From an uncultured bacterium (GTDB lineage: Bacteria > Zixibacteria > MSB-5A5 > CAIYYT01): a stretch of 64,000 nt of DNA. The DNA is taken from assembly GCA_963726455.1 (NCBI GenBank), contig CAVSCK010000004.1:1440001-1504000 (forward strand), given 5' to 3'. The notes under the pieces are model-generated. The model had not been told where the DNA came from and ran no database searches. It saw nothing but the letters and a program-made list of their open reading frames with translations. Below are positions 37,086 to 64,000 of the stretch, one piece after another; position 1 is the first letter of the stretch; each line of letters begins with the position of its first letter. A program made the translations under genes and the position numbers.

Positions 37086-37125
37086 CTATAAGAGTGGTGT
37101 GACTAACGTGAATCCGTCTCTCAAC

Positions 37126-40719: not shown

Positions 40720-40729
40720 TGCACCTCAC

Positions 40730-44892: not shown

Positions 44893-44910
44893 TTGTGAAG
44901 ATTTTCACAT
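44893..44910. promoter_or_regulatory. Rex/CRP-like palindrome upstream of hemA
   Basis: TTGTGAA-GATT-TTCACAT. Confidence 0.7.
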
Positions 44911-44984
44911 CTTATGACAATCACGTGACAATCGTAATCAACCCACTCCTATTTTCTGGGCAAGTTTATGGAGATCAAACAATC

Positions 44985-47221: not shown

Positions 47222-47931
47222 CCGTTCTGATTTCCCGTCCCGCATCGCAGCTTACGGAATTTCTGCGGGTTGCTTCGGATCGCAAAGTGCGAATCATCCC
47301 TTTTCCGTTAATGAGCATCGAACCGACCATTGATCGTTTCGACACCGCCGAAATTGCCCAGGACTTGGCCGATACATCCTGGCTCCTTTTCACCAGTGCC
47401 AACGCCGTCAGAGTCTACCTTGACTTCCTGCGAAAACACAATATCCCGATTCCTTCAGATATCTCCGTCGGCGTTATCGGCAAGAAGACCGCAGAAATGG
47501 TCGAGCGCTACAGTTTGCAGGTCAACCTCTGTCCCAAAGAGGAAATCGCAGAAGGTCTCCTGCAGGAATTCCTTGATTTACACCTACCTCACGACAAGAT
47601 AATTACCATTCCCGCCGCCGCGGATGTTCGACCAGTGTTGGTGGATGGCCTGCTCCGTGCCGGGTACCATACCAACAGACTTGATATTTATCGCAACGCC
47701 GCAACGCCGGCGCACCTGCTGCCCGTCATCTCCGACGAACAGATTGATTATTTTTGTTTCTTGAGTAGTTCTGCTGTAGAACGTTATAATGAGTTGTTTG
47801 GTCGACCGACCGGCACAGCGGTTTCGATCGGCAAAATCACCACCGCGACCATGAACTCGCTTGGGTGGCTTAACATAATCGAATTGCCGGAACCGGATCT
47901 CAACCGGCTCTGGGAGGTCATTGATGCATAG
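47170..47931 (+). CDS. hemD: Uroporphyrinogen-III synthase
   Basis: LISRP, FTSANAV, IGKKTA, FLSSSAV, SIGKIT; operon position; start uncertain. Confidence 0.85.
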   Translation: MPQRAKATADRLSHATLTVLISRPASQLTEFLRVASDRKVRIIPFPLMSIEPTIDRFDTAEIAQDLADTSWLLFTSANAVRVYLDFLRKHNIPIPSDISVGVIGKKTAEMVERYSLQVNLCPKEEIAEGLLQEFLDLHLPHDKIITIPAAADVRPVLVDGLLRAGYHTNRLDIYRNAATPAHLLPVISDEQIDYFCFLSSSAVERYNELFGRPTGTAVSIGKITTATMNSLGWLNIIELPEPDLNRLWEVIDA

Positions 47932-48907
47932 TGTTTATTATAGGCCGCGACGGTTGCGTGTGAATCAACTGATCCGCGATTTGGCTGCGGAAACGCAGCT
48001 CAAACTTAGCGGCATGATTCAGCCCTATTTCGTCTGCGATGGCAAGAATGTCAAAACCGAAATCTCCAGCATGCCGGGTATCTTCCGTGAGTCGGCCGAT
48101 TCGCTGGTCAAATCCATAGCTGCCGACTTGAAGCTGGGCATCAAACGTGTCATGTTGTTCGGTGTGCCCGATATTAAAGACGCCAACGCTTCTTCGGCAC
48201 TCGGCAAAGATGCCGTTGTCAATCGCGCCGTCAAGATGCTCAAGGATAAATTCGGCGAGCAGATTTTTGTCTCTGCTGACGTTTGCCTGTGCGCCTATAC
48301 CGACTCCGGACATTGCGGCATACTGTCGGGGGAACAGATTGACAACGACAAATCCCTGCCGGTGTTGACCCAGATGGCACTCGATTTGGCGCGCGCCGGC
48401 TGTGACTGTGTGGCTCCTTCCGATATGATGGATGGCCGCGTCGCCGCAATTCGCGACGCGCTCGAAGACGAGGGCTTCGTCAACACATTGATACTCGCTT
48501 ACAGTGCCAAGTATGCTTCGGCCTACTATGGTCCGTTCCGCGAAGCGGCTGAGTCTGCGCCGCAACATGGTGACCGCCAGTCTTACCAGATGGACGTTCG
48601 CAATCGTCTGGAGGCTGTCAAGGAAGTTGCGCTCGACATCGAGGAGGGTGCCGACCTGGTCATGGTCAAGCCCGCGCTTGCTTACTTGGACATCATCTCT
48701 GACGTTCGCGCCGCCACCGAATTGCCGGTTGCCGCCTACAACGTCTCCGGTGAATACAGCATGGTCAAACTGATGGTTCAGGCGGGCTATGCCGAGGAAA
48801 AACGTCTGGTGCTGGAAAACCTGACCGCTATCACGCGCGCCGGCGCCGACATCATTCTCACTTACCATCTGCGCGATATCCTCAAGAACGGATGGTTGAA
48901 TGGCTGA
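47924..48907 (+). CDS. hemB: Porphobilinogen synthase
   Basis: RPRRLR, DVCLCAYT.SGHCG, APSDMMDGRV, YGPFREA, MVKPAL.YLD, YNVSGEYSM. Confidence 0.97.
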   Translation: MHSVYYRPRRLRVNQLIRDLAAETQLKLSGMIQPYFVCDGKNVKTEISSMPGIFRESADSLVKSIAADLKLGIKRVMLFGVPDIKDANASSALGKDAVVNRAVKMLKDKFGEQIFVSADVCLCAYTDSGHCGILSGEQIDNDKSLPVLTQMALDLARAGCDCVAPSDMMDGRVAAIRDALEDEGFVNTLILAYSAKYASAYYGPFREAAESAPQHGDRQSYQMDVRNRLEAVKEVALDIEEGADLVMVKPALAYLDIISDVRAATELPVAAYNVSGEYSMVKLMVQAGYAEEKRLVLENLTAITRAGADIILTYHLRDILKNGWLNG

Positions 48908-50183
48908 TCAATCCAAATCGCACCACACTTTCTCGCGCGCCCGCAAAGTCATTCCCGGTGGCGTAAGCTCACCCGTCCGCGCCTTCCGTGCAGTTGGCGG
49001 CGAGCCGGTCTTCATGGATCATGGCCGGGGGCCGTACTTGTTCGATCTCGATGGCAATCGCTATCTCGATTTCTGCTGTTCCTGGGGACCATTGATACTC
49101 GGCCACGCGCAGTCCGAAGTCGTCGATACCGTCACGACCGCTGTTGCCGCCGGCATGACGTTTGGCACGGCCACCGCAATCGAAGTTGACCTTGCCGAGA
49201 AAATTATTGAGAAAGTCAAACCCATTGAAATGGTGCGCTTCGTCTCCTCCGGCACCGAAGCCGTGATGTCTGCGGTTCGGTTGGCGCGCGGCTTCACGCA
49301 TCGCGACAAGATCATCAAATTCAACGGCTGCTATCATGGCCACTCCGACTACCTGCTTGTTAAGGCCGGCTCTGGGTTGGTCACCTTCGGGACTCCGTCG
49401 TCAGCAGGCGTGCCCGAGGACTTCGTCAAACATACCCTGGTCGCCGAACTCGACGACGAAAAACATGTGATCGCCTATTTCGATCAATACGGAAAAGACA
49501 TCGCCGCAGTAATCATCGAACCGATACCGGCCAATAACGGCCTGCTCCCGCAGCGCCCTGAATTCCTGCAATTCCTGCGCGACATCACCACCAAACATGG
49601 CGCACTCTTGATCTTCGACGAAGTCATCTCCGGTTTCCGCGTTGGCTGGGGAGGCGCCGCCGAGCTTTACGGCATCACTCCCGATCTCATGACCTTCGGT
49701 AAAGTCATTGGCGGTGGCATGCCGGTCGGCGCGTTCGGTGGTCGGCGCGAAATCATGGAGCAACTGGCACCGCTAGGCGCCGTCTATCAGGCGGGCACGC
49801 TTTCCGGAAATCCTGTCGCGATGGCTGCGGGACTCAAGACCCTGTCAATTCTCGAACGCGACGATTCGTATTCACGCCTTGAATCCCTTGGCTCATCGTT
49901 TGAACGCTCGCTAAAAAACTCCCTCGCCAACCTCCCGGTCTCTGTCTTGCGTGTTGGCTCGATAGTCTGGATCGCGCTGCAACCACAACCGCCGCGCCGT
50001 GCCATCGACATTGAAGACAAGGGCATTGCCATCTACAACGCCATGCATCGCGAAATTCTGGAAGCCGGAATCTATCTGCCGCCTTCCGGCTATGAAGTCC
50101 TGTTTGTCAGCACGGCGCACACCGAAGCGATGCTGACCGACGCCGCCGGAATAATCGCGCGCGGCATCAAGGCACGCCTGTAA
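48900..50183 (+). CDS. hemL: Glutamate-1-semialdehyde 2,1-aminomutase
   Basis: PGGVSSPVRAF, SWGPLILGH, SGTEA.MSA.RLARG, GCYHGH, GKVIGGGMP, QAGTLSGNP. Confidence 0.97.
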   Translation: MADQSKSHHTFSRARKVIPGGVSSPVRAFRAVGGEPVFMDHGRGPYLFDLDGNRYLDFCCSWGPLILGHAQSEVVDTVTTAVAAGMTFGTATAIEVDLAEKIIEKVKPIEMVRFVSSGTEAVMSAVRLARGFTHRDKIIKFNGCYHGHSDYLLVKAGSGLVTFGTPSSAGVPEDFVKHTLVAELDDEKHVIAYFDQYGKDIAAVIIEPIPANNGLLPQRPEFLQFLRDITTKHGALLIFDEVISGFRVGWGGAAELYGITPDLMTFGKVIGGGMPVGAFGGRREIMEQLAPLGAVYQAGTLSGNPVAMAAGLKTLSILERDDSYSRLESLGSSFERSLKNSLANLPVSVLRVGSIVWIALQPQPPRRAIDIEDKGIAIYNAMHREILEAGIYLPPSGYEVLFVSTAHTEAMLTDAAGIIARGIKARL

Positions 50184-50205
50184 AGCAACGAGCAGTGAGA
50201 CGAAC

Positions 50206-51564
50206 ATGAAATCACTAGCCAGAAGACTCAGGGCGCCCAAAGGAATGGCGCTGGCATTGTTTGTTGCGATCGCGGTCGTGGCCGTCGCTCAGATAAGCTG
50301 GTGGATACTTTTTCAGGTCACAATCTCCCGCGAACAGGAACATCTCTATCGCCAGGTCGCGCAGACTTCCGCCAATCTCACGACTACCATGCTCAATCAA
50401 TGTTATGACCGCCTGGTCTCGCACGCTACGGTCATTGCATCCGACGACAACCCGCAGCACGTCAAGCGCTCATTCGATCAGCTATTGAATGATCCCGCCG
50501 TCAACGGCTACCTCATCAGCGATTCCTCCGGACAGACGATTGCCCGGGGCGGCGTGCTTGATTCATCACTCTATCTGCCGATTGCAGGCCAAGATCCGGT
50601 CGTTCTCTATCTCAATAGCCGCTATCCGATCGCGCAGATCGCCGGTGTCGCGCCGAATCTGACATTTCAGGATAACGGCAAACGCGGTGTCTACACTTCG
50701 CCCTGGTTTGATTCCAGTATGTTCGTCCTCAAGCCCGAAGTGTTGGCGACCGTCCAGAACAAGGCGTTTCATCGCATTGTCATGTTTGCCGCCGAGGGTT
50801 CCTTCTTCGTCCTCCTGACTTTGCTCGGCGCGTTTATGATCTACCGCACGCTTCGGCAAACCGAGGAACTCAAACAGCAGCAGGAAAATTTCATCCATGC
50901 CGTAACGCATGAATTCAAGATCCCCGTGGCGTCGATCAAGCTCTATTTGGAGACAATGTCCTCGCAGAAAATCGACAAGGACAAGTATCAGACCTTCATC
51001 CCGCGCATGCTCGAAGACTGCCAGCGCCTCGAACGCCTGGTCGACAACGTCCTTGAAGCCGGTCGTCTGAGTCGTCATAGTCACCATCTCAAACTGGCGC
51101 CGGCAAATCTGTCCGCCGACATCGAGGAATATCTCGAAGAGTTGCGGCCGCTTATCGAACGCAGCCACCTGAAACTGTCTGTTAATATCGAATCCGACCT
51201 GAACGTCCGCTCCGACTACCAGGCCATGCGTCGCGTCGTCTCGGCTTTGGTCGACAACGCCATCAAGTACTCGCCGGAAAATCGCCGCGAACTTACCATC
51301 ACTGCGAAACGCGTCGGTCATAAATGCCGCCTGACCTTCGCCGACCGTGGCGTCGGAATCGCTCGCGAAGAACAGGACAACATCTTCAATCGCTTCTATC
51401 GCACGGGCACCGAAAACACCCGCACCGTGAAAGGAACCGGATTGGGATTGTTCCTTGTTAAAGAGATTGTGACCGAGCATGATGGCGCCGTGGAGGTAAA
51501 ATCCGACGGCCTTGATCAGGGCAGCACGTTCGTGATCACTCTTCCATTGGAGAAAAGGTCATGA
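50206..51564 (+). CDS. Membrane sensor histidine kinase
   Basis: Two TMs around a periplasmic domain; THEFKIP H-box, DNAIKYS, DRGVGI, GTGLGL. Confidence 0.93.
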   Translation: MKSLARRLRAPKGMALALFVAIAVVAVAQISWWILFQVTISREQEHLYRQVAQTSANLTTTMLNQCYDRLVSHATVIASDDNPQHVKRSFDQLLNDPAVNGYLISDSSGQTIARGGVLDSSLYLPIAGQDPVVLYLNSRYPIAQIAGVAPNLTFQDNGKRGVYTSPWFDSSMFVLKPEVLATVQNKAFHRIVMFAAEGSFFVLLTLLGAFMIYRTLRQTEELKQQQENFIHAVTHEFKIPVASIKLYLETMSSQKIDKDKYQTFIPRMLEDCQRLERLVDNVLEAGRLSRHSHHLKLAPANLSADIEEYLEELRPLIERSHLKLSVNIESDLNVRSDYQAMRRVVSALVDNAIKYSPENRRELTITAKRVGHKCRLTFADRGVGIAREEQDNIFNRFYRTGTENTRTVKGTGLGLFLVKEIVTEHDGAVEVKSDGLDQGSTFVITLPLEKRS

Positions 51565-52277
51565 GCAAACGCATTCTTGTCGTCGAGGACGAAGAACATA
51601 TCGCCGACGGGCTGGCTATGAATCTCGAAGCCGAGGGCTACGAAGTCGTGGTCTGCGGCGACGGCAACGCTGCGCTCGATTACTACCGGAAAGGTTTTCT
51701 CGACTTGATCATTCTCGACATCATGATTCCCGGCAAGGACGGCCTCGCCGTCTGCCGCGAAATCCGGCAGAGTGGCGGACGCGTTCCGATTCTCTTTCTC
51801 ACGGCGCGTGACCGGCAGTCCGATCGCGTCGAGGGTTTCCTGACCGGCGGCGACGACTACATGACCAAACCGTTCGATTTGCAGGAACTGCTTCTGCGCG
51901 TAGCTGCCATCTTCCGTCGGCAGGTCTGGTACGGCACCGTCGAACGCGAGGAATCGCGCTACGACTGGCACGAGAATTGGATAAATTTCAAAAGCTATCT
52001 CGCGCACGGTCCCGGAGGTGAGGTCGAATTATCTCAGAAGGAATGCATGACCATGAAATTCCTGGTCGAGCATCACGACGAGGTCGTCTCTCGCGACATG
52101 ATTCTCGACGCCGTCTGGGGCTACCATGTCTACCCATCGAGCCGCACGATTGACAACTTCATCGTACGACTGCGCAAAATATTCGAGCCCGATCCTACCG
52201 TGCCGCGATACATCCATACCCTGCGCGGTGTCGGCTACAAATTCACACCCGGCGGAGAGACCGATGCCTCATTATAA
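51561..52277 (+). CDS. OmpR-family response regulator
   Basis: VVEDE, LDIMIP, FLTA, DDYMTKPF, SRTIDNFI.RLRK, TLRGVGYKF. Confidence 0.95.
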   Translation: MSKRILVVEDEEHIADGLAMNLEAEGYEVVVCGDGNAALDYYRKGFLDLIILDIMIPGKDGLAVCREIRQSGGRVPILFLTARDRQSDRVEGFLTGGDDYMTKPFDLQELLLRVAAIFRRQVWYGTVEREESRYDWHENWINFKSYLAHGPGGEVELSQKECMTMKFLVEHHDEVVSRDMILDAVWGYHVYPSSRTIDNFIVRLRKIFEPDPTVPRYIHTLRGVGYKFTPGGETDASL

Positions 52278-53286
52278 TTTCATCGCCGCTGCGCTGCGGC
52301 AACCGCACGAGACCGTGCCCATTTGGGTCATGCGCCAGGCCGGCCGATACTTGCCCGAGTACCGCGCCGTTCGCAGTCGGGCGTCGTTTCTCGATCTGTG
52401 CCATCAGCCCGACTTGATGACCGAAGTCTCCCTGCAACCGATCGACATTTTCGGCTTTGACGCCGCAATCTTCTTTTCCGACATCCTGATTCCTTTGGCG
52501 CCGCTCGGCATTTCGGTCACTTTCCCGAACGGCCCGCCGCGACTCGAACCGCCGTTACGCAGTCCTGCCGACATCGACAAATTGAAACCGTACGATATCA
52601 AGTCCGAGCTTTCGTTTGCACTCGCCGGGATCCGGCAAATTCGCACCAAACTTGATGGACGCGTGCCGTTGATCGGTTTCTGCGGATCACCTTTCACGCT
52701 CCTCTGTTACCTTGTCGAGGGTGGCGGCTCGAAAGATTTCACCGAGACCAAGAAGTTCATCTTCACGTATCCTGATGCTGCCACGCGATTGTTGACCCTT
52801 CTCGCTGATCTGGTCGGCGAATATCTCTCGCATCAGATTGCGGCCGGTGCGCAGGCAGTTCAGGTATTCGACACCTGGGGCGGAATATTGTCGCCGGCTG
52901 ATTACCGCCGCTTCAGTCTGCCCTTTGTGCAACGCGTTTTCGATCGCTGCCACACCAAAGGCGTGCCGCGCATCCTGTATCTGGGCAATACGGCCTGCTA
53001 TCTCAATCTGCTCGCCGATCTCCACTGCGAAGTGATTTCGATTGACTGGCGCACTGACTTGACGGCGGCAAAAGCTGCACTGCCCAACCAGGCAATCCAG
53101 GGCAATCTTGATCCCAACATTCTCTTCGCTCCAACGTCAGTAGTTATTGACGAGGCCCGTCGTATTCTTGAGATTATGCGCGACCGCGACGGCTTTATTT
53201 TCAACCTTGGCCACGGCATCTTACCGCAAACACCGGTTGACAACGTACATGCGCTGGTGGATACGGTTCACTCATTTCGGAGATAA
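52264..53286 (+). CDS. hemE: Uroporphyrinogen decarboxylase
   Basis: PIWVMRQAGRYLPEY, FSDIL, IGFCGSPFTL, QGNLDP, FNLGHGI. Confidence 0.96.
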   Translation: MPHYNFIAAALRQPHETVPIWVMRQAGRYLPEYRAVRSRASFLDLCHQPDLMTEVSLQPIDIFGFDAAIFFSDILIPLAPLGISVTFPNGPPRLEPPLRSPADIDKLKPYDIKSELSFALAGIRQIRTKLDGRVPLIGFCGSPFTLLCYLVEGGGSKDFTETKKFIFTYPDAATRLLTLLADLVGEYLSHQIAAGAQAVQVFDTWGGILSPADYRRFSLPFVQRVFDRCHTKGVPRILYLGNTACYLNLLADLHCEVISIDWRTDLTAAKAALPNQAIQGNLDPNILFAPTSVVIDEARRILEIMRDRDGFIFNLGHGILPQTPVDNVHALVDTVHSFRR

Positions 53287-53288
53287 TC

Positions 53289-54674
53289 ATGAAGGAATTG
53301 AATTCTACTTTCGAACTTCTGAAAAAATACGATAAGCCCGGTCCGCGCTATACTTCCTATCCCACGGCTCCCGAATTTCGGCATGACTTCACCACTGTTG
53401 ATTATACCGATGCTCTCACCCGTGCCGGCAAGAACGTCGATTCACCTCTTTCACTGTATGTTCACATTCCTTTTTGCGCCCAGCGCTGCCACTTCTGCGG
53501 TTGCACGACTGTCATTACGCACAGCGAAGAATCCGTCAACAAATATCTCGCCGCTCTCGATATCGAACTGACAAACATCAGCAAGCATCTCGGATCGCGC
53601 CGGCAATTACTGCAACTCCATTGGGGCGGCGGCACGCCGACTCATTTGAATGTAGCGCAAATCGAGCAACTCTTCCGTCAAATCACCGATCGCTTTTCGA
53701 TTCTTCCCGATGCCGAGGTTGCCATCGAGGTTGACCCGCGCGTTACGTCCGATCAGCAAATCGAAAAACTCCGCGCTCTCGGCTTCAATCGCCTCAGCAT
53801 GGGAATTCAGGACTTCACCAAAGTCGTGCAGGCCGCTATCGGTCGCTGGCAGACTTTGAACCAGAGTGAGGCGCTCTATCGTTCCTGCCGCGCCCTCGGC
53901 TATCGCGGCCTCAATATGGATTTGATCTACGGCCTGCCGAAACAGACAGTCCCTGATTTTGCGCGATCTATTGACCATGTCATCCGCATGCGTCCCGACC
54001 GAGTGGCCGTTTACAGCTATGCCTATTTACCGGCACAGCGCTCCAATCAGAAATTGATCAGCCCGTCCTGGCTGCCGACTCTCGAGGACAAATTCCGGCT
54101 CTTCGCCACGGCCGTCGACAAATTCCTGGACGCCGGCTACATCCAAATCGGCATGGACCATTTTGCCTTGCCTGACGACGAATTGGCGATCGCCCTGTCA
54201 CAGCAGACGTTGCACCGCAATTTCATGGGTTATACCACTAAACCCGCTGCTGACATGATCGGCCTTGGCATGTCCGCCATCGGTGACCTCGCCGCCTGCT
54301 ATGCACAGAATATTTCGCGCATCGGCTCTTATCATGCCGCCATCGAGGAGAAAGGCCTCGCGACCTACCGTGGCTATCACCTTTCGCAGGATGATCTCAT
54401 CCGCCGCCGCCTGATTACATTCCTCATGTGCAATTTCATTCTGCCGTTCGATTTGATTAAGCGCGAATTTGGCGTCGACTACTTCGAGTATTTCCGCGCC
54501 GAGGATGCCCAACTCGACCAGTTCATCACCGACGGTTTGCTGCTGCGGCGTCCCGATGCTCTCGAAATTACTCCCGCAGGGCGCATCTTCATTCGCAATA
54601 TCGCGATGGTCTTCGATGCCTATCTGCATCGCGCGGACAAACCGGGACAGCACACTTTCTCGCGCACGATCTGA
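53289..54674 (+). CDS. hemN: Oxygen-independent coproporphyrinogen III oxidase
   Basis: GPRYTSYPTA, HIPFC..RCHFCGC, HWGGGTP, DLIYGLP.Q, HRNFMGYTT. Confidence 0.96.
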   Translation: MKELNSTFELLKKYDKPGPRYTSYPTAPEFRHDFTTVDYTDALTRAGKNVDSPLSLYVHIPFCAQRCHFCGCTTVITHSEESVNKYLAALDIELTNISKHLGSRRQLLQLHWGGGTPTHLNVAQIEQLFRQITDRFSILPDAEVAIEVDPRVTSDQQIEKLRALGFNRLSMGIQDFTKVVQAAIGRWQTLNQSEALYRSCRALGYRGLNMDLIYGLPKQTVPDFARSIDHVIRMRPDRVAVYSYAYLPAQRSNQKLISPSWLPTLEDKFRLFATAVDKFLDAGYIQIGMDHFALPDDELAIALSQQTLHRNFMGYTTKPAADMIGLGMSAIGDLAACYAQNISRIGSYHAAIEEKGLATYRGYHLSQDDLIRRRLITFLMCNFILPFDLIKREFGVDYFEYFRAEDAQLDQFITDGLLLRRPDALEITPAGRIFIRNIAMVFDAYLHRADKPGQHTFSRTI

Positions 54675-54678
54675 GATA

Positions 54679-55703
54679 ATGGCTACCGCGCTCGAACGAA
54701 TTCAGGCAGTCACCGGGAACAGACCGCAGTTCGATCCGGCGCGGGAAATCTGGGGTGTGCTGTTCGTCAATATGGGTGGCCCCGAAAAAACGGAAGAGAT
54801 CAGACCCTATCTTTACAACATCTTCTCCGACCGCGCGGTTATTAACTTCCCGTTGGCGCCTCTCTTGCAGAAGCCAATGGCTCGTCTGATCTCGACACTT
54901 TCGCGCAAAAAGAGTCGCTGCACGTTACAATCTGATTGGCGGCGGTTCACCCCTGTTGAGTTATGATCGCAAGCTGGCTGACGGCGTTAAGCAAATCCTG
55001 ATACGCGAATTCTGCAACATCCGAGTCTATGTCGGCATGCGCTATATCGCAGCCCTTCATCGAAAGCCAGCTACAAGCAGCAATTTCCGATGGTTGCATG
55101 CACCTGCTGGTATTTCCCATGTATCCGCAATACTGTCTGGCAACCACCGGCACCGCTTTCGACGCCATCACTCGCTACCTTGCCGATCATTCGAGAGCAT
55201 TGTCGCTCGATGCAATACCTGACTATTATGAATCTGCCGGATACATTGCATTACTGCGCAAACGTATTGAGCAGGCATTCGCTAGGACACAAGCTGGCTC
55301 GAAAACACGTCTATTGTTCTCTGCTCATTCAGTCCCTGAAAGTATCCGCGCGGGCGGTGATCCTTACGTCAACCAGGTAACTCACACTTGCGATCTCGCC
55401 GGACGCGGTTATGATTATATGCTTTCCTTTCAATCAGCGACCGGCCCGGTGAAATGGGTCGGACCCGACACCTTGCAAACAATCGACAAGCTCGCCATCG
55501 AGGGTATCGAGCAACTCATAGTCGTACCGGTCAGCTTTGTGTCGGACAACATTGAGACGCTTTACGACATCGATATTGTCATGCAGGAACGTTGCCGTCA
55601 ACTTGGAATGAAACCGCTGATCCGCACCACCATGTTCAATGGCGAACCCGACTTCGCCGAATTCATCGCCGGCCTTGTCCGCGAGAGGATACGCACCACA
55701 TGA
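54679..55703 (+). CDS. hemH: Ferrochelatase (two +1 frameshifts)
   Basis: NMGGP (frame 1), YNLIGGGSPL..GMRY (frame 2), PMYPQY, FSAHSVP, FQS..GP..W.GP, SFVSDNIETLYDID (frame 3); extra bases ~54901 and ~55046. Confidence 0.9.
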
Positions 55704-57097
55704 CTGTCGATCACGAGACTCCGCGTATTGCGATCATCGGTGGCGGCATTTCCGGTTTGGCGTCGCTGCACTTTCTCAAACGCAAGCTTGGTGGACGCGC
55801 ACGGATTCGCCTGTTCGAGGCAGACTCACGGCTGGGCGGTACCATCGGCTCCGACCGCGTTGATGGTTATGTCTGTGACTGGGGGCCTAACGGCTTTCTC
55901 GATCGTGTCCCCTTGACTTTGCAGCTTGTCGATGAAATCGGCCTGCGGGACAAACTTCGTCCCGCTGATCCCCAGGCCGATAATCGTTTCATTTACCGGC
56001 ATGGCCGTCTGCATGCCATCAGCGCTTCCCCGATCAAGTTCATGACATCGCGGTTGCTGTCATTGCCAGGACGGTTGCGTGTGACGATGGAACCTTTGAT
56101 CAAAGCCAGACGCGACGGCGCCGACGAATCCGTGTTTGATTTTGCCGCGCGGCGTATCGGTCGCGAAGCCGCCGAGGCCATGATCGATCCCATGGTCTCC
56201 GGCATCTTCGGTGGTGATGCCAAAGCCGTTTCGCTCAAATCCTGTTTCCCTGTAATGGAGGAAATGGAACGCAATTACGGCTCCCTCTTCAAAGCGATGA
56301 TCGCCAAAAAGAAGTCAGGCAAGAACGCCGGACCTGCCGGACCTTCGGGACGGCTGACCTCGTTCAACAACGGTCTCTTTACGCTTGTCGAGCGCTTCTA
56401 CGAACTATACTCTGAACACATTCAGACCGGCACTCCGACCACAAATATCACTCGAACGCCCACCGGATATCATCTCGAATTTGGCAACGGCAGTTCCGAC
56501 ACCTTTGACGGCGTGATTATCGCAACCCCGGCCTATGTTGCCGCACATTTGTTGAAACGCTCTGATGAATCGGTCTCCGATCTGCTCAGCCAAATTCCCT
56601 ATGCGTCACTTGCCGTCTGTTGCTTCGGTTATCGCGACGACAAACGCGCGCAGGAACTCGATGGCTTCGGATTTCTTGTTCCCCGTAACGAGGGCAAACG
56701 AATTCTCGGCTCGATCTGGACATCGTCGATCTTCCGCGATCAGGCGCCAACCGGAGAAGTTCTGCTGCGCACAATGGTCGGCGGCTACACCGACCCCGAT
56801 GCCGTGCATCTTGACGACAAGGATCTGATCGCATTAGTTCACGGCGAGCTTAGCCAGATACTCGGCCTGCAAACGCAACCTGCCTTTGTGCGAATCTTTC
56901 GCTATGACAAGGGTATCCCCCAATTCATTCTGGGCCACAATGACCGGCTCCGGCAAATCGCGACACGCCTCGAATCTCTCCCCGGAATCTATCTTGCCAG
57001 CAATGCCTATTCCGGCATCGGCCTGAACGATTGCGTCACCCGCGCCGATGAAGTCACCACCGCTCTCGTTCAGCATCTCGCCTGCCCGAAGACCTAA
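55700..57097 (+). CDS. hemY: Protoporphyrinogen/coproporphyrinogen oxidase, FAD-dependent (HemY type)
   Basis: IIGGGISGL, GPNGF, GFGFLVP, IPQF..GH, GIGLNDCV; ATGA overlap with hemH. Confidence 0.93.
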   Translation: MTVDHETPRIAIIGGGISGLASLHFLKRKLGGRARIRLFEADSRLGGTIGSDRVDGYVCDWGPNGFLDRVPLTLQLVDEIGLRDKLRPADPQADNRFIYRHGRLHAISASPIKFMTSRLLSLPGRLRVTMEPLIKARRDGADESVFDFAARRIGREAAEAMIDPMVSGIFGGDAKAVSLKSCFPVMEEMERNYGSLFKAMIAKKKSGKNAGPAGPSGRLTSFNNGLFTLVERFYELYSEHIQTGTPTTNITRTPTGYHLEFGNGSSDTFDGVIIATPAYVAAHLLKRSDESVSDLLSQIPYASLAVCCFGYRDDKRAQELDGFGFLVPRNEGKRILGSIWTSSIFRDQAPTGEVLLRTMVGGYTDPDAVHLDDKDLIALVHGELSQILGLQTQPAFVRIFRYDKGIPQFILGHNDRLRQIATRLESLPGIYLASNAYSGIGLNDCVTRADEVTTALVQHLACPKT

Positions 57098-57178: not shown

Positions 57179-58003
57179 GTGCATAACAGGGTACTCCTCT
57201 ATTCTGCAGCGGCAGTGGCATTCGTGGCACTGCTCTTTCTTGGCGCCGGCCTGGGCAACAGCATTGCCTTCACCAACTTAAATCATCCCCACCGCTCTGT
57301 CGGCTGCAAGAATTGCCACGGGTTTCAAACGCGAGAGGCCGCCTCGGATTCGCTTCAAGGTCAGAAACCGGCCGCGACCGCCCAATGCCTTGAATGCCAT
57401 GCCACCGACCTGCAAAAACCCGGTTTCGCGCAGCTTTTCCACCAGCGTGGCGAGGATTGTGAACGCTGCCACAGCTTCCACAATCCGCAAGTGCTTGTGA
57501 TAAATGGAGACTCCACCGACATCGAGGTAGCCACAGCCGAGCTCTACCAATGTAGTGACTGCCACCAGACTACCACTCTCCCCGAAGTTAGTGCGGGACA
57601 TCAGGAAGCGGCGAAACTTCTGCACGGTGACACCAGGGGATTATTCCGCACCGATCCCAGCGCCTTCTGCCTGGCCTGCCACGATTACGGTGCCGTTCCG
57701 CAGGTTACGTCGAATTTAAGGCCTCCCCAGTTGCACATGGAGGCCAGTCATCCTTACGACATCAGGATCATCCCCGGCTATCGGCGCGCTGGGTCCTCCC
57801 TGAAACTGCAGGATCAGCTTGACCCAATGTACCGGCTGGTCGACGAGAAAATGACCTGTATCACCTGCCATTCCCTGGCCTCAACTAATGCCCAACTTGT
57901 GGTGGCCACAATCGACAAAGGCCTCTGCACCGGTTGCCATGATATGCAGCGTCCCGATGGCTCCTTCGCCGCCCTGTCTCTTCACAAGCAGGTCAATAAC
58001 TAG
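57179..58003 (+). CDS. Multiheme cytochrome c (7 CxxCH)
   Basis: N-terminal signal/anchor; CKNCH, CLECH, CERCH, CSDCH, CLACH, CITCH, CTGCH. Confidence 0.88.
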   Translation: MHNRVLLYSAAAVAFVALLFLGAGLGNSIAFTNLNHPHRSVGCKNCHGFQTREAASDSLQGQKPAATAQCLECHATDLQKPGFAQLFHQRGEDCERCHSFHNPQVLVINGDSTDIEVATAELYQCSDCHQTTTLPEVSAGHQEAAKLLHGDTRGLFRTDPSAFCLACHDYGAVPQVTSNLRPPQLHMEASHPYDIRIIPGYRRAGSSLKLQDQLDPMYRLVDEKMTCITCHSLASTNAQLVVATIDKGLCTGCHDMQRPDGSFAALSLHKQVNN

Positions 58004-58501: not shown

Positions 58502-59629
58502 ATGATGAATCAACTGCGCAGTCCGCACGAAAGACAACTCCTACGCTTCGGCTCTTCCTGTTTCACGAAGCTGCTCGTCCTATCTCTCCTAGTTCTCGCC
58601 GCTCTCTCTGCGACTACTCCGCTCTTCGCTCAGGGCAACGGCCGTTTAGTGCTGCCGGCACAGTTCGTTCGCGAACTTACTCCTCCCGGTGACGGTGGCA
58701 GCTTCCTTCGTCCCGACAAGATTTTCCTCGATAACCGTTTCAACGAAGTCTTTGTGTCCGACCCGGGATACAATCGGATCGTTGTCTTTGATACCTCCGG
58801 CCTGTACAAATTCGAATTTTCCGGCAACCAGATTTTCGGCACCGCTGATGACATTGTGGTAGACTCCGACGGCTACATTTATGTTCTGGGTTCGACCGCC
58901 GCGGGCAAGAACATCTTTGTTTTCGATTACGACGGCCTCTACCTCAAGAAGCTGGAGTTGACCGGCCTGCCCGCCGGGCAAACATTGGAAATCGATCATC
59001 TCATAATCGATGAAACCAGCACCTTCTACACGATCGACGAAGCCAAAGCGCTGGTGACTTCATTGGGCACCGACGGCGTCCTGAAAAATCAATTCCCGAT
59101 CCTGGCTGATCTCACTGACAAACTGCGGCAGGAAGCCCTCTACGGCACGCCGCAGGTTTACGGCGGCGCCATCTACATCCCGGTTTCTACCGAGGGCTCG
59201 GTGTACGTCTACGATCTCTCCGGCAACTATATTTCCAACATCGGCGTTCAGGGCACTGACGCCGGTTCGCTTAACTTCCCCGTTGCCGTCGCTGTTGCCG
59301 ACGGTGGACAAATACTCACCGTACTGGATAAACATCGCTATGTCGTCGTTTGCTACACGCTGGACGGCAAGTTCATCGGCGAGTACGGCGGCATGGGATT
59401 TAGTCTGGGCTGGTTCTACCATCCGGGCGCTTTCGCCCTCGACAAGTTCAATCGTGCCTACATCAGCCAGGTGTATCTGAATCGTGTGCAAGTCTGTGCG
59501 CTGCCCGATGCCATCATTCAGAAAGCAAAGTCACTGAACATAAAGAGTTCTCAAACACAAACTTCACCACAAAAGCTTGAAACAATGCTTAGAGAGGAGG
59601 TGATCGGGCAAATCACCGAAATCCATTGA
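58502..59629 (+). CDS. Secreted NHL-repeat beta-propeller (candidate OmcS-companion protein)
   Basis: VFVSDPGYNRIVVFD, DIVVDSDGYIYV, GSLNFPVAVAV, GWFYHP...NRVQV. Confidence 0.88.
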   Translation: MMNQLRSPHERQLLRFGSSCFTKLLVLSLLVLAALSATTPLFAQGNGRLVLPAQFVRELTPPGDGGSFLRPDKIFLDNRFNEVFVSDPGYNRIVVFDTSGLYKFEFSGNQIFGTADDIVVDSDGYIYVLGSTAAGKNIFVFDYDGLYLKKLELTGLPAGQTLEIDHLIIDETSTFYTIDEAKALVTSLGTDGVLKNQFPILADLTDKLRQEALYGTPQVYGGAIYIPVSTEGSVYVYDLSGNYISNIGVQGTDAGSLNFPVAVAVADGGQILTVLDKHRYVVVCYTLDGKFIGEYGGMGFSLGWFYHPGAFALDKFNRAYISQVYLNRVQVCALPDAIIQKAKSLNIKSSQTQTSPQKLETMLREEVIGQITEIH

Positions 59630-59673: not shown

Positions 59674-60741
59674 ATGCGTAAGGTTCTTCTCATTGCCATC
59701 TGCTTCGCCGTAGCGCTGTTTTTCAGCGGCGTAGCCTATGGTTTCCATGACGAAGGCGTGGCGCGCTGCAGTGGTTGTCATACCATGCACAACAGCCAGA
59801 ATGGCACTGCGGTAGACACCACAACCGGCCATGAAAACGGTAACGAATACCTGTTGATCAAGGCCAAGCCGTCTGACGTCTGCTTGTCATGCCACGGTGC
59901 CGAACGCGGCGCCGTATTTGGCACCGATCCGTTGGCTCCCCCGGCCGAAAAGGGCCCGGGTAACTTTGTTTTCCTTCTGGAGAACAACATTTATGATGGC
60001 CGCACTGGCACCGTCACCGGCGACGCCGCCGGTCACAACGTCGATGCCCCGTCCAGAGGCGTCGGTCCGGACGCTACCCTGAGCTCCGCCCCGGGTGGAA
60101 CTTTCCCGGCCAGTGCTATGGGTTGCTCCTCCTGCCATGATCCGCATGGCAACCAGAACTATCGTCTTCTGTATGGCGCCGGTGGCGTTGTGCAGGATGG
60201 TATCGCCACGTTCACCAGTGCTGCTCCGACCGCCGAAGGTCTTGGTTTCAGCGCCGCTGCTGAAAGCAACACCAACCACGTCGCCTACAAGGGTGGCTTC
60301 AGCGCTTGGTGCGGAAACTGCCACGGCAATTTCCATCAGGAAGCAGGCGGCAGACTTGAGCATCCGTCCGGCGAAGGCTTGGGCGGCACGATTTCCGGTA
60401 ACTATGGTCGTTACAATGGTACTGCCCATTACAACAGTGGTACTCCGGCGACCTCGTATCTGGCAGCGGTCCCGTTTGAGGATGCAGCCAATACCACCAC
60501 CTCGACTGCCGGCCCGACGGCCTCCAGCCAGGTGTCTTGCATCACCTGCCACAGAGCACATGCCACCTCAGCTCCGGATGCCGGCCGCTGGGACTTCAAT
60601 GTGACCTGGCTCTCTGACGACGGTGTTCGCTCCGGTTCCTATGCTATTCCAAATCCGTACGGTCCCGACGTGGAAATTCAGCGCTCGCTGTGCAACAAGT
60701 GCCACGTGAAGGATGCCGGCGACGTTGGAAGCAATCCGTAA
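59674..60741 (+). CDS. omcS: Hexaheme cytochrome c, OmcS-family (nanowire-type)
   Basis: RBS GGAGG; signal peptide then FHDEGVARCSGCHTMHNS, CLSCH, APGGTFPA..CSSCHDPHG, VAY.GG.S.WCGNCH, CITCHRAHA, QRSLCNKCH.KD; collinear with Geobacter OmcS motifs as recalled. Confidence 0.85.
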   Translation: MRKVLLIAICFAVALFFSGVAYGFHDEGVARCSGCHTMHNSQNGTAVDTTTGHENGNEYLLIKAKPSDVCLSCHGAERGAVFGTDPLAPPAEKGPGNFVFLLENNIYDGRTGTVTGDAAGHNVDAPSRGVGPDATLSSAPGGTFPASAMGCSSCHDPHGNQNYRLLYGAGGVVQDGIATFTSAAPTAEGLGFSAAAESNTNHVAYKGGFSAWCGNCHGNFHQEAGGRLEHPSGEGLGGTISGNYGRYNGTAHYNSGTPATSYLAAVPFEDAANTTTSTAGPTASSQVSCITCHRAHATSAPDAGRWDFNVTWLSDDGVRSGSYAIPNPYGPDVEIQRSLCNKCHVKDAGDVGSNP

Positions 60742-60801: not shown

Positions 60802-60834
60802 CAAAACGCCCGACTGACAAAGCCGGGCGTTTTG
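60802..60834 (+). terminator. Strong hairpin/terminator after the omcS-like gene
   Basis: CAAAACGCCCG-11 nt-CGGGCGTTTTG. Confidence 0.75.
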
Positions 60835-60854: not shown

Positions 60855-62963
60855 ATGAGACAATATTTGTCGCCATACAGACCGATAGCCATATTTGTCC
60901 GCCTTGTCGTCTGCCTGATTGCCCTGTTCCTCGCAGGAATCAGTTCTGCCGTGGCAGGAATTTCGCCCAACCTTTCCGGCACGATCAATGTGTCAGGCGT
61001 AAATTCGCTGTCCGACACACTGCACGAACAGAGTCTCAGCCAGCAGTACGCTATCTACTGGCAAAAGAATCTCTTCCCCTATGTGATGTTGCGCACCTCG
61101 GTTACTTACTTCAATTATGGCCTGAACCAAAACATCGGCGCGAATAGTTGGCGCAAAGAGTTTTCTCCGGTAGCGGAGCTGACGTGGAAGCATCCGTACT
61201 TTAGTCTATCCGGTTCGGCGCAACGCCGCCAGACCAGCAGTAACGACATGCTCACCAACCTGAACAACGATTTTCTGACTGCGAGTCTGCGCACGCGATT
61301 GGCAAATTATCCTTACATCAATGCCCAGTTTCAGCAAAGCGATATCTACAACCGCCCCGATCGCCGTGAGCGCGACACGCGGAACCGTTCGCTGATAGCC
61401 GCGACCGGCTACAGTACGCGAAGCTCGAATGCTTCTTATTCGTTTTCGCTTCGCAACACAATCAACCGCCTGGATCAACGACAACAGAAAGATTATCAGC
61501 ATTCGGTACGGCTGAATCATACCCGCAATCTGGTCGGGAAAGCAGTAAGAACAAGCGTTGGATATTCGCTGGATTATCGCACCCAGCATGATATCACTCC
61601 GGCTGCCAGCATTCTTCCTCGCGAGATCCCCGGGTTGAACGGCCTGTATGCCAACGATGCAACGCCCGACTTGGGCGCGCTTGATAGCATTACATCTTTG
61701 GCAGATGGAAATACTGCCTTACCAACGACGCCTCCGATCGATATCGGCAACGGCAACGTCAACTGGAACCTGGGCGCTGACCTCGGCGCCACGCAGACAG
61801 TCAATAAGATCTATGTCTACACCGACCGTCCCTCCGGCAATGGAGTGCGCTGGGAAGTCTTCAGGTCGGCCGACAATATCGTCTGGAATCAGGTGACGGG
61901 ATCAACGTCATTCTTCAATATCAGTTTCAGCCGCTACGAAATCAGTTTTCCCAGCGACACTACTCGCCTTATCAAGGCCGTAAATTCCGGCCTCAATGAA
62001 GTTCCGACGGTTTTTGTGACTGAACTCGAAGCGCTGGTCGAAATCGGGAACCAGCCCGATATCAAACGGGAGCAAACCATTCATCAGGCAAATTTGAATA
62101 ATACTTTTCTCTTGTCATCCAAACTTACGGCCGGTGCCGATGTCTACTTGCGCCGTGAATCGGGCAGAAGTTTGTCCGTGTTACGAAATGAGACCGATTA
62201 CGCCGCCAGCACGAGATTCAAGTTTTCCGAGGCATTACAGAACGGTGTTCGCTACGAAATCGACCTGATCAACTTTGAAAAAGGCACCCCCGATGTCGAT
62301 AAGACGTCTTCGGTGGCCTATGATCTGCAGTACAGACCAATGGAGACTCTCGCTTTTCTCTTGTCCGCAGCCAGCCGTCACAGCTATATTGGTCCGATGA
62401 AGTCCCAGGAACTCAATAATGCCATTCTGCGGGCGCTTGGCGACCCCTTCGTTCGCTTGCACATCGCGACTGAGGTTGGATACTCAGGCAACAATCTCTA
62501 CGCGGGGAATCTCAGATATAACACCTTCGTCTATAACATGTCAGTCACCGGCGGAATCTTCAGGTTCCTGGACGCCGGCGTGACTTATGGCTATCAGCAT
62601 ACTGACGACGTCAGAAACGCCTTGATACGGACCAAGAACCAATATTCCCTGCTCGTGACCTATCGGATGACGCGCCATATTCTGATGCAGGGAAACGTTG
62701 ATCTGACCCATGACTTCAACAATCGCTACATTTCCCAGGAATACCTGGTAAGCTGGACGGCCTCTCCCAAGCTCAGTCTTTCCGGTTCCGCCTATTTGAC
62801 CGAGCAGTACGGCGCTTCGCGAACCGATAGATACAATGCCCAGCTTCAATATTATGTCACCGCGCGCACGTCGCTGTTGGTGATGTATACCGAGTATGAT
62901 CTGACTCCCACTCTCGGCAATCGCACTGCCGCCATACAGGCCGGTATCAGGACTTCTTTTTGA
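60855..62963 (+). CDS. Outer-membrane beta-barrel protein with an inserted discoidin-like domain
   Basis: Signal peptide, alternating amphipathic Tyr/Ser/Asn-rich strands, terminal Phe (GIRTSF); central LGADLG..VNKIYVY..WEVFRSADN..W segment. Confidence 0.8.
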   Translation: MRQYLSPYRPIAIFVRLVVCLIALFLAGISSAVAGISPNLSGTINVSGVNSLSDTLHEQSLSQQYAIYWQKNLFPYVMLRTSVTYFNYGLNQNIGANSWRKEFSPVAELTWKHPYFSLSGSAQRRQTSSNDMLTNLNNDFLTASLRTRLANYPYINAQFQQSDIYNRPDRRERDTRNRSLIAATGYSTRSSNASYSFSLRNTINRLDQRQQKDYQHSVRLNHTRNLVGKAVRTSVGYSLDYRTQHDITPAASILPREIPGLNGLYANDATPDLGALDSITSLADGNTALPTTPPIDIGNGNVNWNLGADLGATQTVNKIYVYTDRPSGNGVRWEVFRSADNIVWNQVTGSTSFFNISFSRYEISFPSDTTRLIKAVNSGLNEVPTVFVTELEALVEIGNQPDIKREQTIHQANLNNTFLLSSKLTAGADVYLRRESGRSLSVLRNETDYAASTRFKFSEALQNGVRYEIDLINFEKGTPDVDKTSSVAYDLQYRPMETLAFLLSAASRHSYIGPMKSQELNNAILRALGDPFVRLHIATEVGYSGNNLYAGNLRYNTFVYNMSVTGGIFRFLDAGVTYGYQHTDDVRNALIRTKNQYSLLVTYRMTRHILMQGNVDLTHDFNNRYISQEYLVSWTASPKLSLSGSAYLTEQYGASRTDRYNAQLQYYVTARTSLLVMYTEYDLTPTLGNRTAAIQAGIRTSF

Positions 62964-62986
62964 TTCCGAGTGAAAGGTTTTACATA

Positions 62987-63562
62987 ATGCGTTTTACAGC
63001 CCTGCGGTCAATTTCAATACTAACTCTGCTGTTACTCCTGGTCGCCTGTTCTGGAATGGGGCCGACGGTCTTCGTCAACAAGCAGTACAATTTTAACTTC
63101 CTCGAAAAAGTTGCCGTGGTACCGTTCGAGAACCTCTCCTCCGATCAGGGCGCCGGGGCACGCATCACCCACATTTTCCTCACGGAGCTTTTGTCCACCG
63201 AGTCATTCGATGTGGTCGAGCCGGGGGAAGTGTCCAAAGCCGTCCAGAAATTTGGCGGCGGCGGAACGGCCAGTCTGACCAAAGATCAGATCGTGGAGGT
63301 CGGCAAGACTCTGGGAGTGCAGGGGATTATCCTTGGCTCCGTGAACGAATCGGCCGGCACGCGCGCCGGATCCTCACCTACTACCGAAATTACCATCAAC
63401 GCCAGAATGGTGGAGACCGAAACCGGCCAGACTATTTGGTCGGCTACGAATACTGAGGGCGGACGCGGCTTCTGGGCATCGCTCTTTGGCACCGGCGACA
63501 AGTCGGAAAGCCAATCCACCCGCAAGTGCGTCAAGCGGATCATTAAGACACTGGTCAAGTAG
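62987..63562 (+). CDS. CsgG/DUF799-like lipoprotein
   Basis: Lipobox LVAC; VAVVPFENLS, LGVQGIILGSV, ARMVETETGQTIWS. Confidence 0.82.
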   Translation: MRFTALRSISILTLLLLLVACSGMGPTVFVNKQYNFNFLEKVAVVPFENLSSDQGAGARITHIFLTELLSTESFDVVEPGEVSKAVQKFGGGGTASLTKDQIVEVGKTLGVQGIILGSVNESAGTRAGSSPTTEITINARMVETETGQTIWSATNTEGGRGFWASLFGTGDKSESQSTRKCVKRIIKTLVK

Positions 63563-63569
63563 CCACGCG

Positions 63570-64000
63570 ATGACTGCCTCCATAGTTCGCCGGATATTTC
63601 TCGTTGCCGCGTTGCCGGTTATTTCGATGATCCTCGGGGTATTCTCTTTGCCATCTGATCTCAGCGCCGCTGCGCGCATAGGAATCCTGCCGTTCGGCAA
63701 TTACACCAATACCAACTCAGCACCCGATTCGCTGACACCCCTGATCCAGGAGCAATTGACTTCGCGCGGGTTTGTGGCGGTATCGCACGACAGCATCCGC
63801 AATTTCATGCGCCACCAGCGCCTCAGAACGATGGGTATGGTTTCCTCCAAAGAGACCGAATTGCTGCGCGACAACCTCAGTTTGGATTACTTGATCACGG
63901 GCTCGCTGGACTTCTACGCGGCACAGGCCAATCCCGAAGTAGGACTTTCCGTTCGGGTAATTGATTGTCACTCGCTGGCAATCGTGTGGGCGGCGAGTCA
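63570..64000 (+). CDS. Second CsgG-like secreted protein (3' truncated; absent from ORF track)
   Basis: Manual translation MTASIVRRIFLVAALP...RIGILPFGNYT...LDYLITGSLDFY...VGLSVRVIDCHSLAIVWAAS. Confidence 0.8.
   Translation, partial: MTASIVRRIFLVAALPVISMILGVFSLPSDLSAAARIGILPFGNYTNTNSAPDSLTPLIQEQLTSRGFVAVSHDSIRNFMRHQRLRTMGMVSSKETELLRDNLSLDYLITGSLDFYAAQANPEVGLSVRVIDCHSLAIVWAAS

Follow-up and report, generated by a model that had tools for sequence, protein, structure and literature searches.

To our knowledge, structures of OmcS-type cytochrome filaments come from Geobacter only, and the evidence in other organisms comes from cultured relatives. The genes that accompany omcS, the omcS-companion (osc) cluster, are said in the title of the report describing them to be widespread and ancient; OscH is reported to contain a prolyl isomerase, OscE, OscF and OscG to be channel-like and OscD to resemble a beta-propeller. 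Here we analyse a 64,000-nucleotide stretch of DNA (referred to below, at its full length, as the window; contig CAVSCK010000004.1 of assembly GCA_963726455.1, positions 1,440,001 to 1,504,000 of the forward strand) from an uncultured bacterium of the phylum Zixibacteria. At 59674..60741 (+) it carries a gene for a short-form hexahaem cytochrome (the subunit in what follows), third in a co-directional cluster, and we regard it as almost certain that this protein belongs to the OmcS family and that its gene lies in a cluster of the osc type.

Passages of Portela et al. 2024 describe OmcS homologues as widespread in bacteria, based on RefSeq, and in passages of papers citing Shen et al. 2025 folding is assigned to OscH, secretion to OscE/F/G and morphology to OscD, one such passage describing the companion cluster as absent from archaea. 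Parts of PMC12977616 report that a block of eight genes, GSU2500-GSU2493, always accompanies a GSU2501-type hexahaem gene, even where omcS proper is missing. OscC (GSU2501), OmcT and OmcJ are all OmcS-like hexahaem paralogues, and the GSU2501 type sits beside the eight-gene block, as the window gene does beside its companions. The osc cluster of Geobacter (GSU2501-GSU2493), as given in parts of PMC13194489 and PMC12977616, shares with the window cluster the order OmcS-like gene, barrel, small lipoprotein, CsgG-like gene, prolyl isomerase, about 26-haem cytochrome and about 16-haem cytochrome, plus an NHL gene. It differs in that the window cluster has no OscD-like propeller lipoprotein of about 470-500 aa, has only one OmcS-like gene (an orphan paralogue lying elsewhere in the genome) and has a 7-haem cytochrome at its head. 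The general layout is also shared by the OmcE nanowire gene cluster of Desulfuromonas and Geobacter.

Translation of 59674-60741 (+) gives 355 residues followed by a stop, with six CxxCH motifs in the order CSGCH, CLSCH, CSSCH, CGNCH, CITCH and CNKCH, and with a Sec-like signal peptide at residues 1-23 (59674-59742, +), the mature protein starting at F24 (59743). An earlier sequence-only reading of this locus had described a secreted protein of 355 aa with exactly six CxxCH motifs, and both its coordinates and its description were correct. A Shine-Dalgarno sequence, GGAGG, lies 7 nt before the ATG at 59674, and homologues in the family begin at the equivalent methionine with a typical signal peptide. 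A TTG at 59626 was considered as an alternative start and rejected because GGAGG sits in front of the ATG; the TTG has no ribosome-binding site of its own, and signal peptides in the family begin at the ATG-equivalent position.

The subunit is a true OmcS homologue. In a phmmer search of 177,635 distinct PDB sequences the only significant match was OmcS (6ef8_A/6nef; E 9.9e-37, 130 bits), the next match having an E value of 3.3; a similarity of this degree lies well outside chance. The alignment consists of two stretches that cover residues 24-316 of the query and 1-357 of the OmcS chain, with F24 of the subunit paired with residue 1 of the mature solved protein. The motifs that the sequence-only reading had listed for OmcS (FH..GVA.C.GCHTMHNS, GHN, APGGT(F/Y)PA..CSSCHDPHG, WC.NCH, HP.G, PFE and CHRAHA) are all present and aligned to OmcS in this search, and the last of them, QRSLCNKCH.KD, is present and aligned to a long-form relative. 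Pfam and NCBIfam hold no OmcS-specific family, and generic multihaem models alone match the subunit.

Comparison of folds gave the same answer. A model built with AlphaFold2 on an alignment of 110 sequences (A1) had a mean predicted local distance difference test score (pLDDT) of 88.3 and a predicted template-modelling score (pTM) of 0.85, and was mostly coil, as OmcS is. Foldseek against the PDB returned OmcS as the sole match at E<=0.001 (E 2.3e-17, TMq 0.76, TMt 0.67), and VIA-align superposed the model on OmcS with Z 29.2 and a root-mean-square deviation of 2.7 Å over 315 aligned residues (36% identity). This structural alignment runs from 24 to 347 of the model and from 1 to 407 of the OmcS chain and thereby takes in the C-terminal haem-6 region, which was also aligned to a long form by BLASTP; similarity to OmcS is thus full-length. 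The next VIA-align matches were a chain of the MtrA complex (6r2q_A, Z 5.0) and OmcE (Z 4.2). The OmcE subunit is unrelated (7tfs against the model, E 1.3) and carries four haems, whereas the window subunit carries six motifs for them.

The likeness to OmcS of G. sulfurreducens (PDB 6EF8/6NEF) extends to the haem ligands. We surveyed 201 full-length members, chosen from 271 proteins for the presence of six CxxCH motifs, the Phe-His N-terminal motif and a start residue. Among these, H25, H121, H158, H230 and H296 of the subunit are conserved in 100% and H39 in 99% (96% among 50%-identity representatives). These six are the only conserved histidines outside the motifs, their number equals that of the haems, and alignment A1 agrees, all 18 Cys/His positions of the six CxxCH motifs being invariant in it. 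All six distal histidines pair with histidines of the solved OmcS chain in the phmmer alignment, so the axial positions have not been lost, and bis-His ligation of all six haems appears likely from the sequence comparison. The segment CSGCHTMHNS of the subunit pairs with CEGCHTMHNS of OmcS, by which H39 corresponds to OmcS His16 when counted along the alignment; the second histidine of CHTMH, to which the sequence-only reading had drawn attention, is therefore retained. All through the family the mature protein has a strikingly uniform start, A|FH(D/S/E)GGVAxCxGCHTMHNS, in which Phe-His and the His16 equivalent are conserved at 96-100%. His16 of OmcS is reported (Wang et al. 2019) to be the ligand of haem 5 in the adjacent subunit. 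A passage of a review mentions, in general terms only, that such a distal-His bond between OmcS subunits exists. A predicted complex of two mature copies (24-355) with four haems only had a score of 0.01 and a mark of 0.42, and counts neither for nor against binding.

What sets the protein apart from OmcS is its length, its position in a separate clade and its host, which belongs to Zixibacteria and not to Thermodesulfobacteriota. Precursors in the OmcS family fall into short forms of about 350-385 aa and OmcS-like long forms of about 390-490 aa, and the mature subunit has 332 residues as against 407 in OmcS. Identity to long forms is 33-46%. Relative to one of these (P0159; 33% identity, E 3e-55) it has three main deletions: some 27 residues are missing behind the haem-3 motif, some 11 ahead of haem 5 and some 20 ahead of haem 6, in keeping with the earlier suggestion of a streamlined variant. 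In a quick maximum-likelihood tree of 99 sequences (root arbitrary; rows from loci L005-L015, which duplicate refetched genomes, left out) the 18 Zixibacterial short forms fall together in one clade (SH-aLRT 100), which a stem of 0.91 divides from 81 long forms. The subunit is in this distinct short-form clade, which broadly groups by host family and is nested in no Geobacteraceae subclade; in this it differs from OscC, OmcT and OmcJ, although OscC orthologues could not be labelled with certainty in the tree. An origin of the gene in Desulfobacterota, or its recent transfer, was considered and rejected on the same grounds, the Zixibacterial sequences being one clade that broadly follows host family.

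The family is large. A word-indexed search found 2,062 clusters (90% identity) at E<=1e-5 among 7,994 candidates scored, the best being 86% identical to the subunit; those with a named taxon among the 120 matches listed came from Zixibacteria (best 73%), Acidobacteriota, Gemmatimonadota and Eisenbacteria. In an exhaustive search of 50%-identity representatives, 954 clusters passed E<=1e-3; 370 of them also passed E<=1e-10, and 94 passed E<=1e-30. Probing the fetched proteins and loci with two short OmcS motifs brought up no exact OmcS orthologue; close orthologues were identified by the PDB searches. The window's genome also carries a second short-form OmcS-like gene (G000:C4:548709-549692, minus strand; L004:9701-10780), 60% identical to the subunit and matching 6ef8 at E 3.4e-31. 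It is an orphan about 950 kb from the cluster, with no companion genes, and its N-terminus is 4 residues shorter between the first histidine and the first CxxCH (VHDQC as against FHDEGVARC), the histidine of CHTIH being kept.

The cluster opens with a 7-haem cytochrome of 274 aa (57179..58003, +; Pfam Cytochrome_C7 E 1.7e-13 and Paired_CXXCH), followed by an NHL-type six-bladed beta-propeller of 375 aa with an N-terminal signal-like segment (58502..59629, +; Pfam DUF5128 E 4.7e-14; NCBIfam ScyF NHL E 1.4e-14, which is below cut-off) and by the subunit gene. Next come a predicted outer-membrane beta-barrel of 702 aa (60855..62963, +), recognised from its AlphaFold2 model and Foldseek matches, a 200-aa LpoB/CsgG-like lipoprotein with lipobox LVAC (62960..63562, +; Pfam LpoB E 7.8e-06, CsgG E 4.2e-04) and a 402-aa CsgG/FlgO-like protein (Pfam CsgG E 5.5e-08), whose 5' part lies at 63486..64000 (+) and whose full open reading frame (ORF; L003:7487-8695) runs past the window end. 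By position these three are the equivalents of OscE, OscF and OscG. Beyond the window follow a SurA-like prolyl isomerase of 556 aa (SurA_N and two PPIC rotamase domains), an about 26-haem cytochrome split into two overlapping ORFs of 470 aa (17 CxxCH) and 314 aa (9 CxxCH) at L003:10330-12379 (G000:C4:1506329-1508378), and a 16-haem cytochrome of 409 aa with 16 CxxCH motifs.

Gene order, domain content and the citing papers suggest that the barrel, the lipoprotein, the CsgG-like protein and the prolyl isomerase correspond to OscE, F, G and H, and that the propeller lipoprotein of about 470-500 aa found in other loci corresponds to OscD. The reference locus of G. sulfurreducens PCA is not among our loci, and its place was taken by a Geobacteraceae metagenome-assembled genome (L053), Geomonas spp. 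and Geobacter sp. L1geo. Each companion is pairwise homologous to genes in Geobacteraceae, Geomonas, Nitrospirota, Anaeromyxobacter and Acidobacteria loci. Homologues of the 200-aa lipoprotein in Geobacteraceae, Nitrospirota and Anaeromyxobacter loci are 28-35% identical (E 1e-22 to 1e-32), a prolyl isomerase homologue stands at this point of the gene order in loci from Geomonas, Geobacter sp. L1geo, Anaeromyxobacter and Nitrospirota, and the two large cytochromes share 36-39% identity with their Geobacteraceae counterparts. In Geomonas azotofigens (L093) the order is NHL, OmcS-like gene, 496-aa propeller lipoprotein, barrel, lipoprotein, CsgG-like gene, prolyl isomerase and 657-aa cytochrome; in L053 the OmcS orthologue (537 bits, E 3.2e-160 against solved OmcS) has downstream of it a second OmcS-like gene, an OscD-like propeller lipoprotein, a barrel, a lipoprotein and a CsgG-like gene.

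A scan for long forms with one genome per species gave at least 568 loci, of which 80 were kept, many of their flanks ending at contig ends. The 80 came from Geobacteraceae, Geomonas, Desulfuromonadaceae, Desulfobulbaceae, Nitrospirota, Anaeromyxobacter, Acidobacteriota, Deferrisomatales and others. By BLASTP within the fetched flanks, at least four of the five non-cytochrome companions (NHL, barrel, lipoprotein, CsgG-like protein and prolyl isomerase) were present in 25 of the 80 loci and none in 33; the barrel profile matched 40, including L053, and an OscD-like gene was found in 35. Homologues of the lipoprotein and of the CsgG-like protein were each present in 40 loci among all those searched.

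Within the phylum, 201 Zixibacterial genomes including that of the window were sampled and 64 of them had a match to the subunit at E<=1e-10, among them 14 of the 16 genomes from the family to which the host belongs. Of the 200 other species genomes, 36 had an orthologue that is at least 47% identical, and a further 27 had only a remote (about 30%) relative. About 20 kb was fetched around 17 of the 36 orthologues, picked by score and by room on the contig and not at random, and all 17 loci had one order: NHL, subunit, barrel, lipoprotein, CsgG-like gene, prolyl isomerase, about 680-aa cytochrome and about 409-aa cytochrome. A homologue of the 7-haem cytochrome was present in 14 of them (upstream of NHL in 13, elsewhere in the locus in 1). 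The NHL gene was directly upstream of the subunit gene in every case, and loci of Geomonas, Nitrospira, Anaeromyxobacter and Acidobacteria likewise have it upstream of their OmcS-like gene. In L113, L114 and L115, from three further genomes of the phylum, the OmcS-like gene is of a remote type (about 320 aa, 26-27% identical to the subunit), the only type present in 27 of the 201 sampled genomes. Its cluster is arranged differently and comprises an about 970-aa multihaem cytochrome, a pair of small lipoproteins, an NHL propeller and another OmcS-like gene, of about 400 aa.

A companion that varies among the relatives is the OscD-like gene. A tblastn search of the window's genome with the 496-aa Geomonas protein found no homologue at E<=1e-3, the Zixibacterial OscD-like proteins gave weak partial matches only, elsewhere in the genome, and the gap between the subunit and barrel genes is 113 nt. 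Six of the 17 relatives (L097, L099, L104, L106, L107 and L109) carry, between those two genes, an OscD-like propeller lipoprotein of 461-512 aa that matches the Geomonas protein at E 2e-23 to 2e-35, and the other 11 are without it. Because it is present in only these six, the OscD-like gene appears to be a dispensable module, and its distribution across the 17 relatives and the window's genome forms a natural presence/absence series.

The 113-nt gap holds a further feature, a GC-rich terminator- or attenuator-like hairpin at 60802..60834 (+), 60 nt past the subunit stop, with 14 pairs of which 8 are G-C. Its energy is -20.5 kcal/mol; 60 random 130-nt pieces of the window had a mean of -15.9, a standard deviation of 4.0 and a minimum of -28.1. 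The tail on the + strand is A/T-rich only, with no clean T-run. Each of the 17 relatives has a counterpart after its orthologue, in which the stem AACGCCCGG/CCGGGCGTT is conserved and the loop varies; the energies of these hairpins lie between -19.4 and -32.9 kcal/mol (50-nt frame) and many have a T-run, so that a terminator-like hairpin after the subunit gene is conserved in 18 of 18 loci. From this we infer a partial terminator, by which the subunit would be made in excess over the assembly proteins, as is the case for major pilus subunits. Such a layout fits a structural polymer and is no proof of one.

The 702-aa protein of the cluster has no family in Pfam or NCBIfam, and its AlphaFold2 model (pLDDT 89.1) is all-beta, with about 28 long strands and an inserted beta-sandwich at about 254-397. 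The best Foldseek match was MtrB (6r2q_B; E 1e-10, TMq 0.40, 9% identity), followed by TonB-dependent receptors, (pilus) ushers and LptD, and we predict a large outer-membrane barrel with no finer placement. MtrB is the porin of a porin-cytochrome complex, and as in MtrCAB multihaem cytochromes are encoded alongside the barrel. The subunit could thus be an OmcS-like hexahaem cytochrome that does not polymerise: monomeric or in small oligomers, it would work at the cell surface or within the barrel and form with the barrel and the large periplasmic cytochromes a conduit of the porin-cytochrome type. OmcS itself is the only member proven as a wire, with OmcT, OmcJ and OscC/GSU2501 as comparable paralogues; in parts of PMC12977616 the cluster-embedded GSU2501-type gene is proposed to encode either an uncharacterised wire or a secreted non-wire protein, and the window gene is at just this cluster-embedded position beside the barrel. 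The long branch (0.91) that separates the Zixibacterial clade from all 81 long forms also means that the properties of OmcS proper need not carry over. Yet the match to MtrB is weak, TonB receptors, ushers and LptD score nearly as well, and the window barrel, unlike that of MtrCAB, carries an inserted beta-sandwich domain. The companion set matches that reported, in the passages cited above, to be needed for OmcS filament folding and secretion, and not one of the MtrA/MtrC type, and the conservation of the His16 equivalent and of the Phe-His N-terminus at 96-100% across the family is hard to explain unless the N-terminal segment acts as it does in OmcS. We consider a non-polymerising conduit component a less probable role for the subunit.

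The conservation of the His16 equivalent and the N-terminus, the presence of folding and secretion genes and the expression layout instead lead us to favour, with modest confidence, a subunit that polymerises into a haem-stacked filament of the OmcS type. Several points weigh against this. OmcS filaments have been seen in Geobacter, and short-form members are known from genes and models alone; the authors of PMC12977616 caution that, beyond a single genus, true nanowire subunits cannot be picked out by sequence models. The subunit is 75 residues shorter than mature OmcS, lacking segments behind haem 3 and ahead of haems 5 and 6, and six distal histidines by count do not separate a polymer from a monomer. 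AlphaFold2 may have been trained on 6ef8, which was released in 2019, so that the agreement in fold confirms what the sequences show but is not a wholly separate line of evidence. Finally, the window's genome is without an OscD-like gene and its about 26-haem cytochrome is split by a frame change.

The last two points could also be taken to mean that the cluster is decaying and non-functional in this genome, the subunit gene itself being intact. The split leaves frames of 470 and 314 aa where the orthologue in L098 is intact with 688 aa and 26 CxxCH motifs, and the alignment to that orthologue leaves frame 1 at residue 465 (L003:11697) and resumes in frame 2 at residue 470 (11711), which amounts to one frame change; like splits occur in 3 of the 17 relatives (L104, L105 and L109). 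The essential gene rpoB (G000:C4:919343-923111, minus strand; locus L116) is also split in the same assembly, its family model being matched in two frames (positions 4-1050 and 1046-1238) and its longest ORF having 1117 aa as against about 1250-1268 aa in relatives, which suggests indel errors in the assembly. Because rpoB is affected as well, the frame changes in both genes are probably assembly indels and not gene decay, and this is the simpler reading. All other genes of the cluster are intact, and the 11 relatives that also lack the OscD-like gene nevertheless keep the rest of theirs; we regard decay as very improbable.

If a filament of the OmcS type is formed, the subunit would be exported by the Sec system with its signal peptide cut before F24, and six c-type haems would be attached at the six CxxCH motifs and bis-His ligated. 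Folding and export would involve the OscH-like SurA-type prolyl isomerase, the NHL propeller and an OscE/F/G-like trio made up of the barrel of about 28 strands and the two lipoproteins. Once outside the cell, each subunit would be joined head to tail to the next, with His39 (matching OmcS His16) completing the ligation of haem 5 in the neighbouring subunit to give a continuous chain of haems that would serve extracellular electron transfer, with the 7-, about 26- and 16-haem cytochromes of the cluster probably feeding or draining the filament. The same anatomy, whether filament or conduit, could work mainly inward, taking electrons from Fe(II), minerals or partner cells, and the sequence is silent on which way the electrons would move. 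Passages of the literature that cite earlier work connect OmcS in Geobacter with the reduction of Fe(III) oxides, and we hold a mainly inward role to be improbable, if somewhat less so than decay of the cluster.

That the OmcS family and its companion cluster are widespread has already been published; the points of interest here are the short-form subunit and the OscD-less cluster. More tentatively, the short form of about 330 residues may be a minimal OmcS-type nanowire subunit and the main extracellular electron-transfer appendage of Zixibacteria and allied uncultured phyla (close homologues are labelled Acidobacteriota, Gemmatimonadota and Eisenbacteria), served by a reduced machinery that in many lineages, the present one among them, needs no OscD, a proposal that we put forward as possible and not as our expectation. 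If it were true, the short form would define the core of the fold sufficient for polymerisation, and sediments and the subsurface would harbour a large store of nanowire-forming bacteria that has so far gone unrecognised. A subunit that is naturally short would help to define what is essential to polymerisation and would provide a smaller scaffold for engineering. The complete set of subunit and machinery genes is conserved in an uncultured phylum, a group that may pass electrons to minerals outside the cell. In main-text passages of metagenomic studies, Zixibacteria are credited with iron-reduction genes generally and never explicitly with an OmcS-type subunit or osc cluster, a statement that does not extend to figures, supplements or Shen et al. 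2025; the cluster provides a concrete and testable basis for the iron-cycling role that such surveys assign to the phylum. The finding extends a known system and introduces no new principle.

The host genome measures 3.64 Mb in 5 contigs, with a completeness of 100 and a contamination of 2.13. The N-terminal 500 residues of its RpoB have relatives up to 91% identical, and among the 120 matches listed those with a named taxon are all Zixibacteria (best named 80%), bar one labelled 'bacterium'. The host phylum is thus Zixibacteria, as the sequence-only reading had thought probable, and the alternative that it had named, Desulfobacterota, is excluded. The genome has 22 ORFs with at least three CxxCH motifs, one of them with 55. 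Very large cytochromes are encoded at G000:C4:1835115-1841986, in ORFs with 20, 8 and 55 CxxCH motifs, the last having 1357 aa. No small trihaem ORF of the PpcA type turned up in a crude scan of the genome.

Upstream of the cytochrome cluster the window contains a near-complete run of haem biosynthesis genes (hemA, C, D, L, E, N, H and Y-like; 44895..57097, +; Pfam GlutR_N, Porphobil_deam, HEM4, Aminotran_3, URO-D, HemN_C, Ferrochelatase and Amino_oxidase), interrupted at 50206-52277 (+) by a histidine kinase and an OmpR-type response regulator (Pfam HisKA/HATPase_c and Response_reg). The run ends 80 nt before the cluster, an adjacency that hints at a functional link between the two. On the opposite strand, 39574-42881 (-) encodes a 380-aa cytochrome with 13 CxxCH motifs (cytochrome c3/c7 domains), an NrfD-type membrane protein and a 4Fe-4S dicluster protein; this module resembles a quinol-cytochrome oxidoreductase and could be a quinol-oxidising entry that supplies the periplasm with electrons. 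Further upstream, 31566-39437 (+) encodes a bacterial alpha-2-macroglobulin (1839 aa) and then a PBP1C-type penicillin-binding protein (731 aa), a pairing known in Gram-negative bacteria. Directly after the cytochrome cluster, beyond the window, lie a HamA-family gene (L003:13989-14993; Pfam E 6.5e-61) and then an 845-aa ORF (G000:C4:1511054-1513591), which together may be a defence pair of the Hachiman type.

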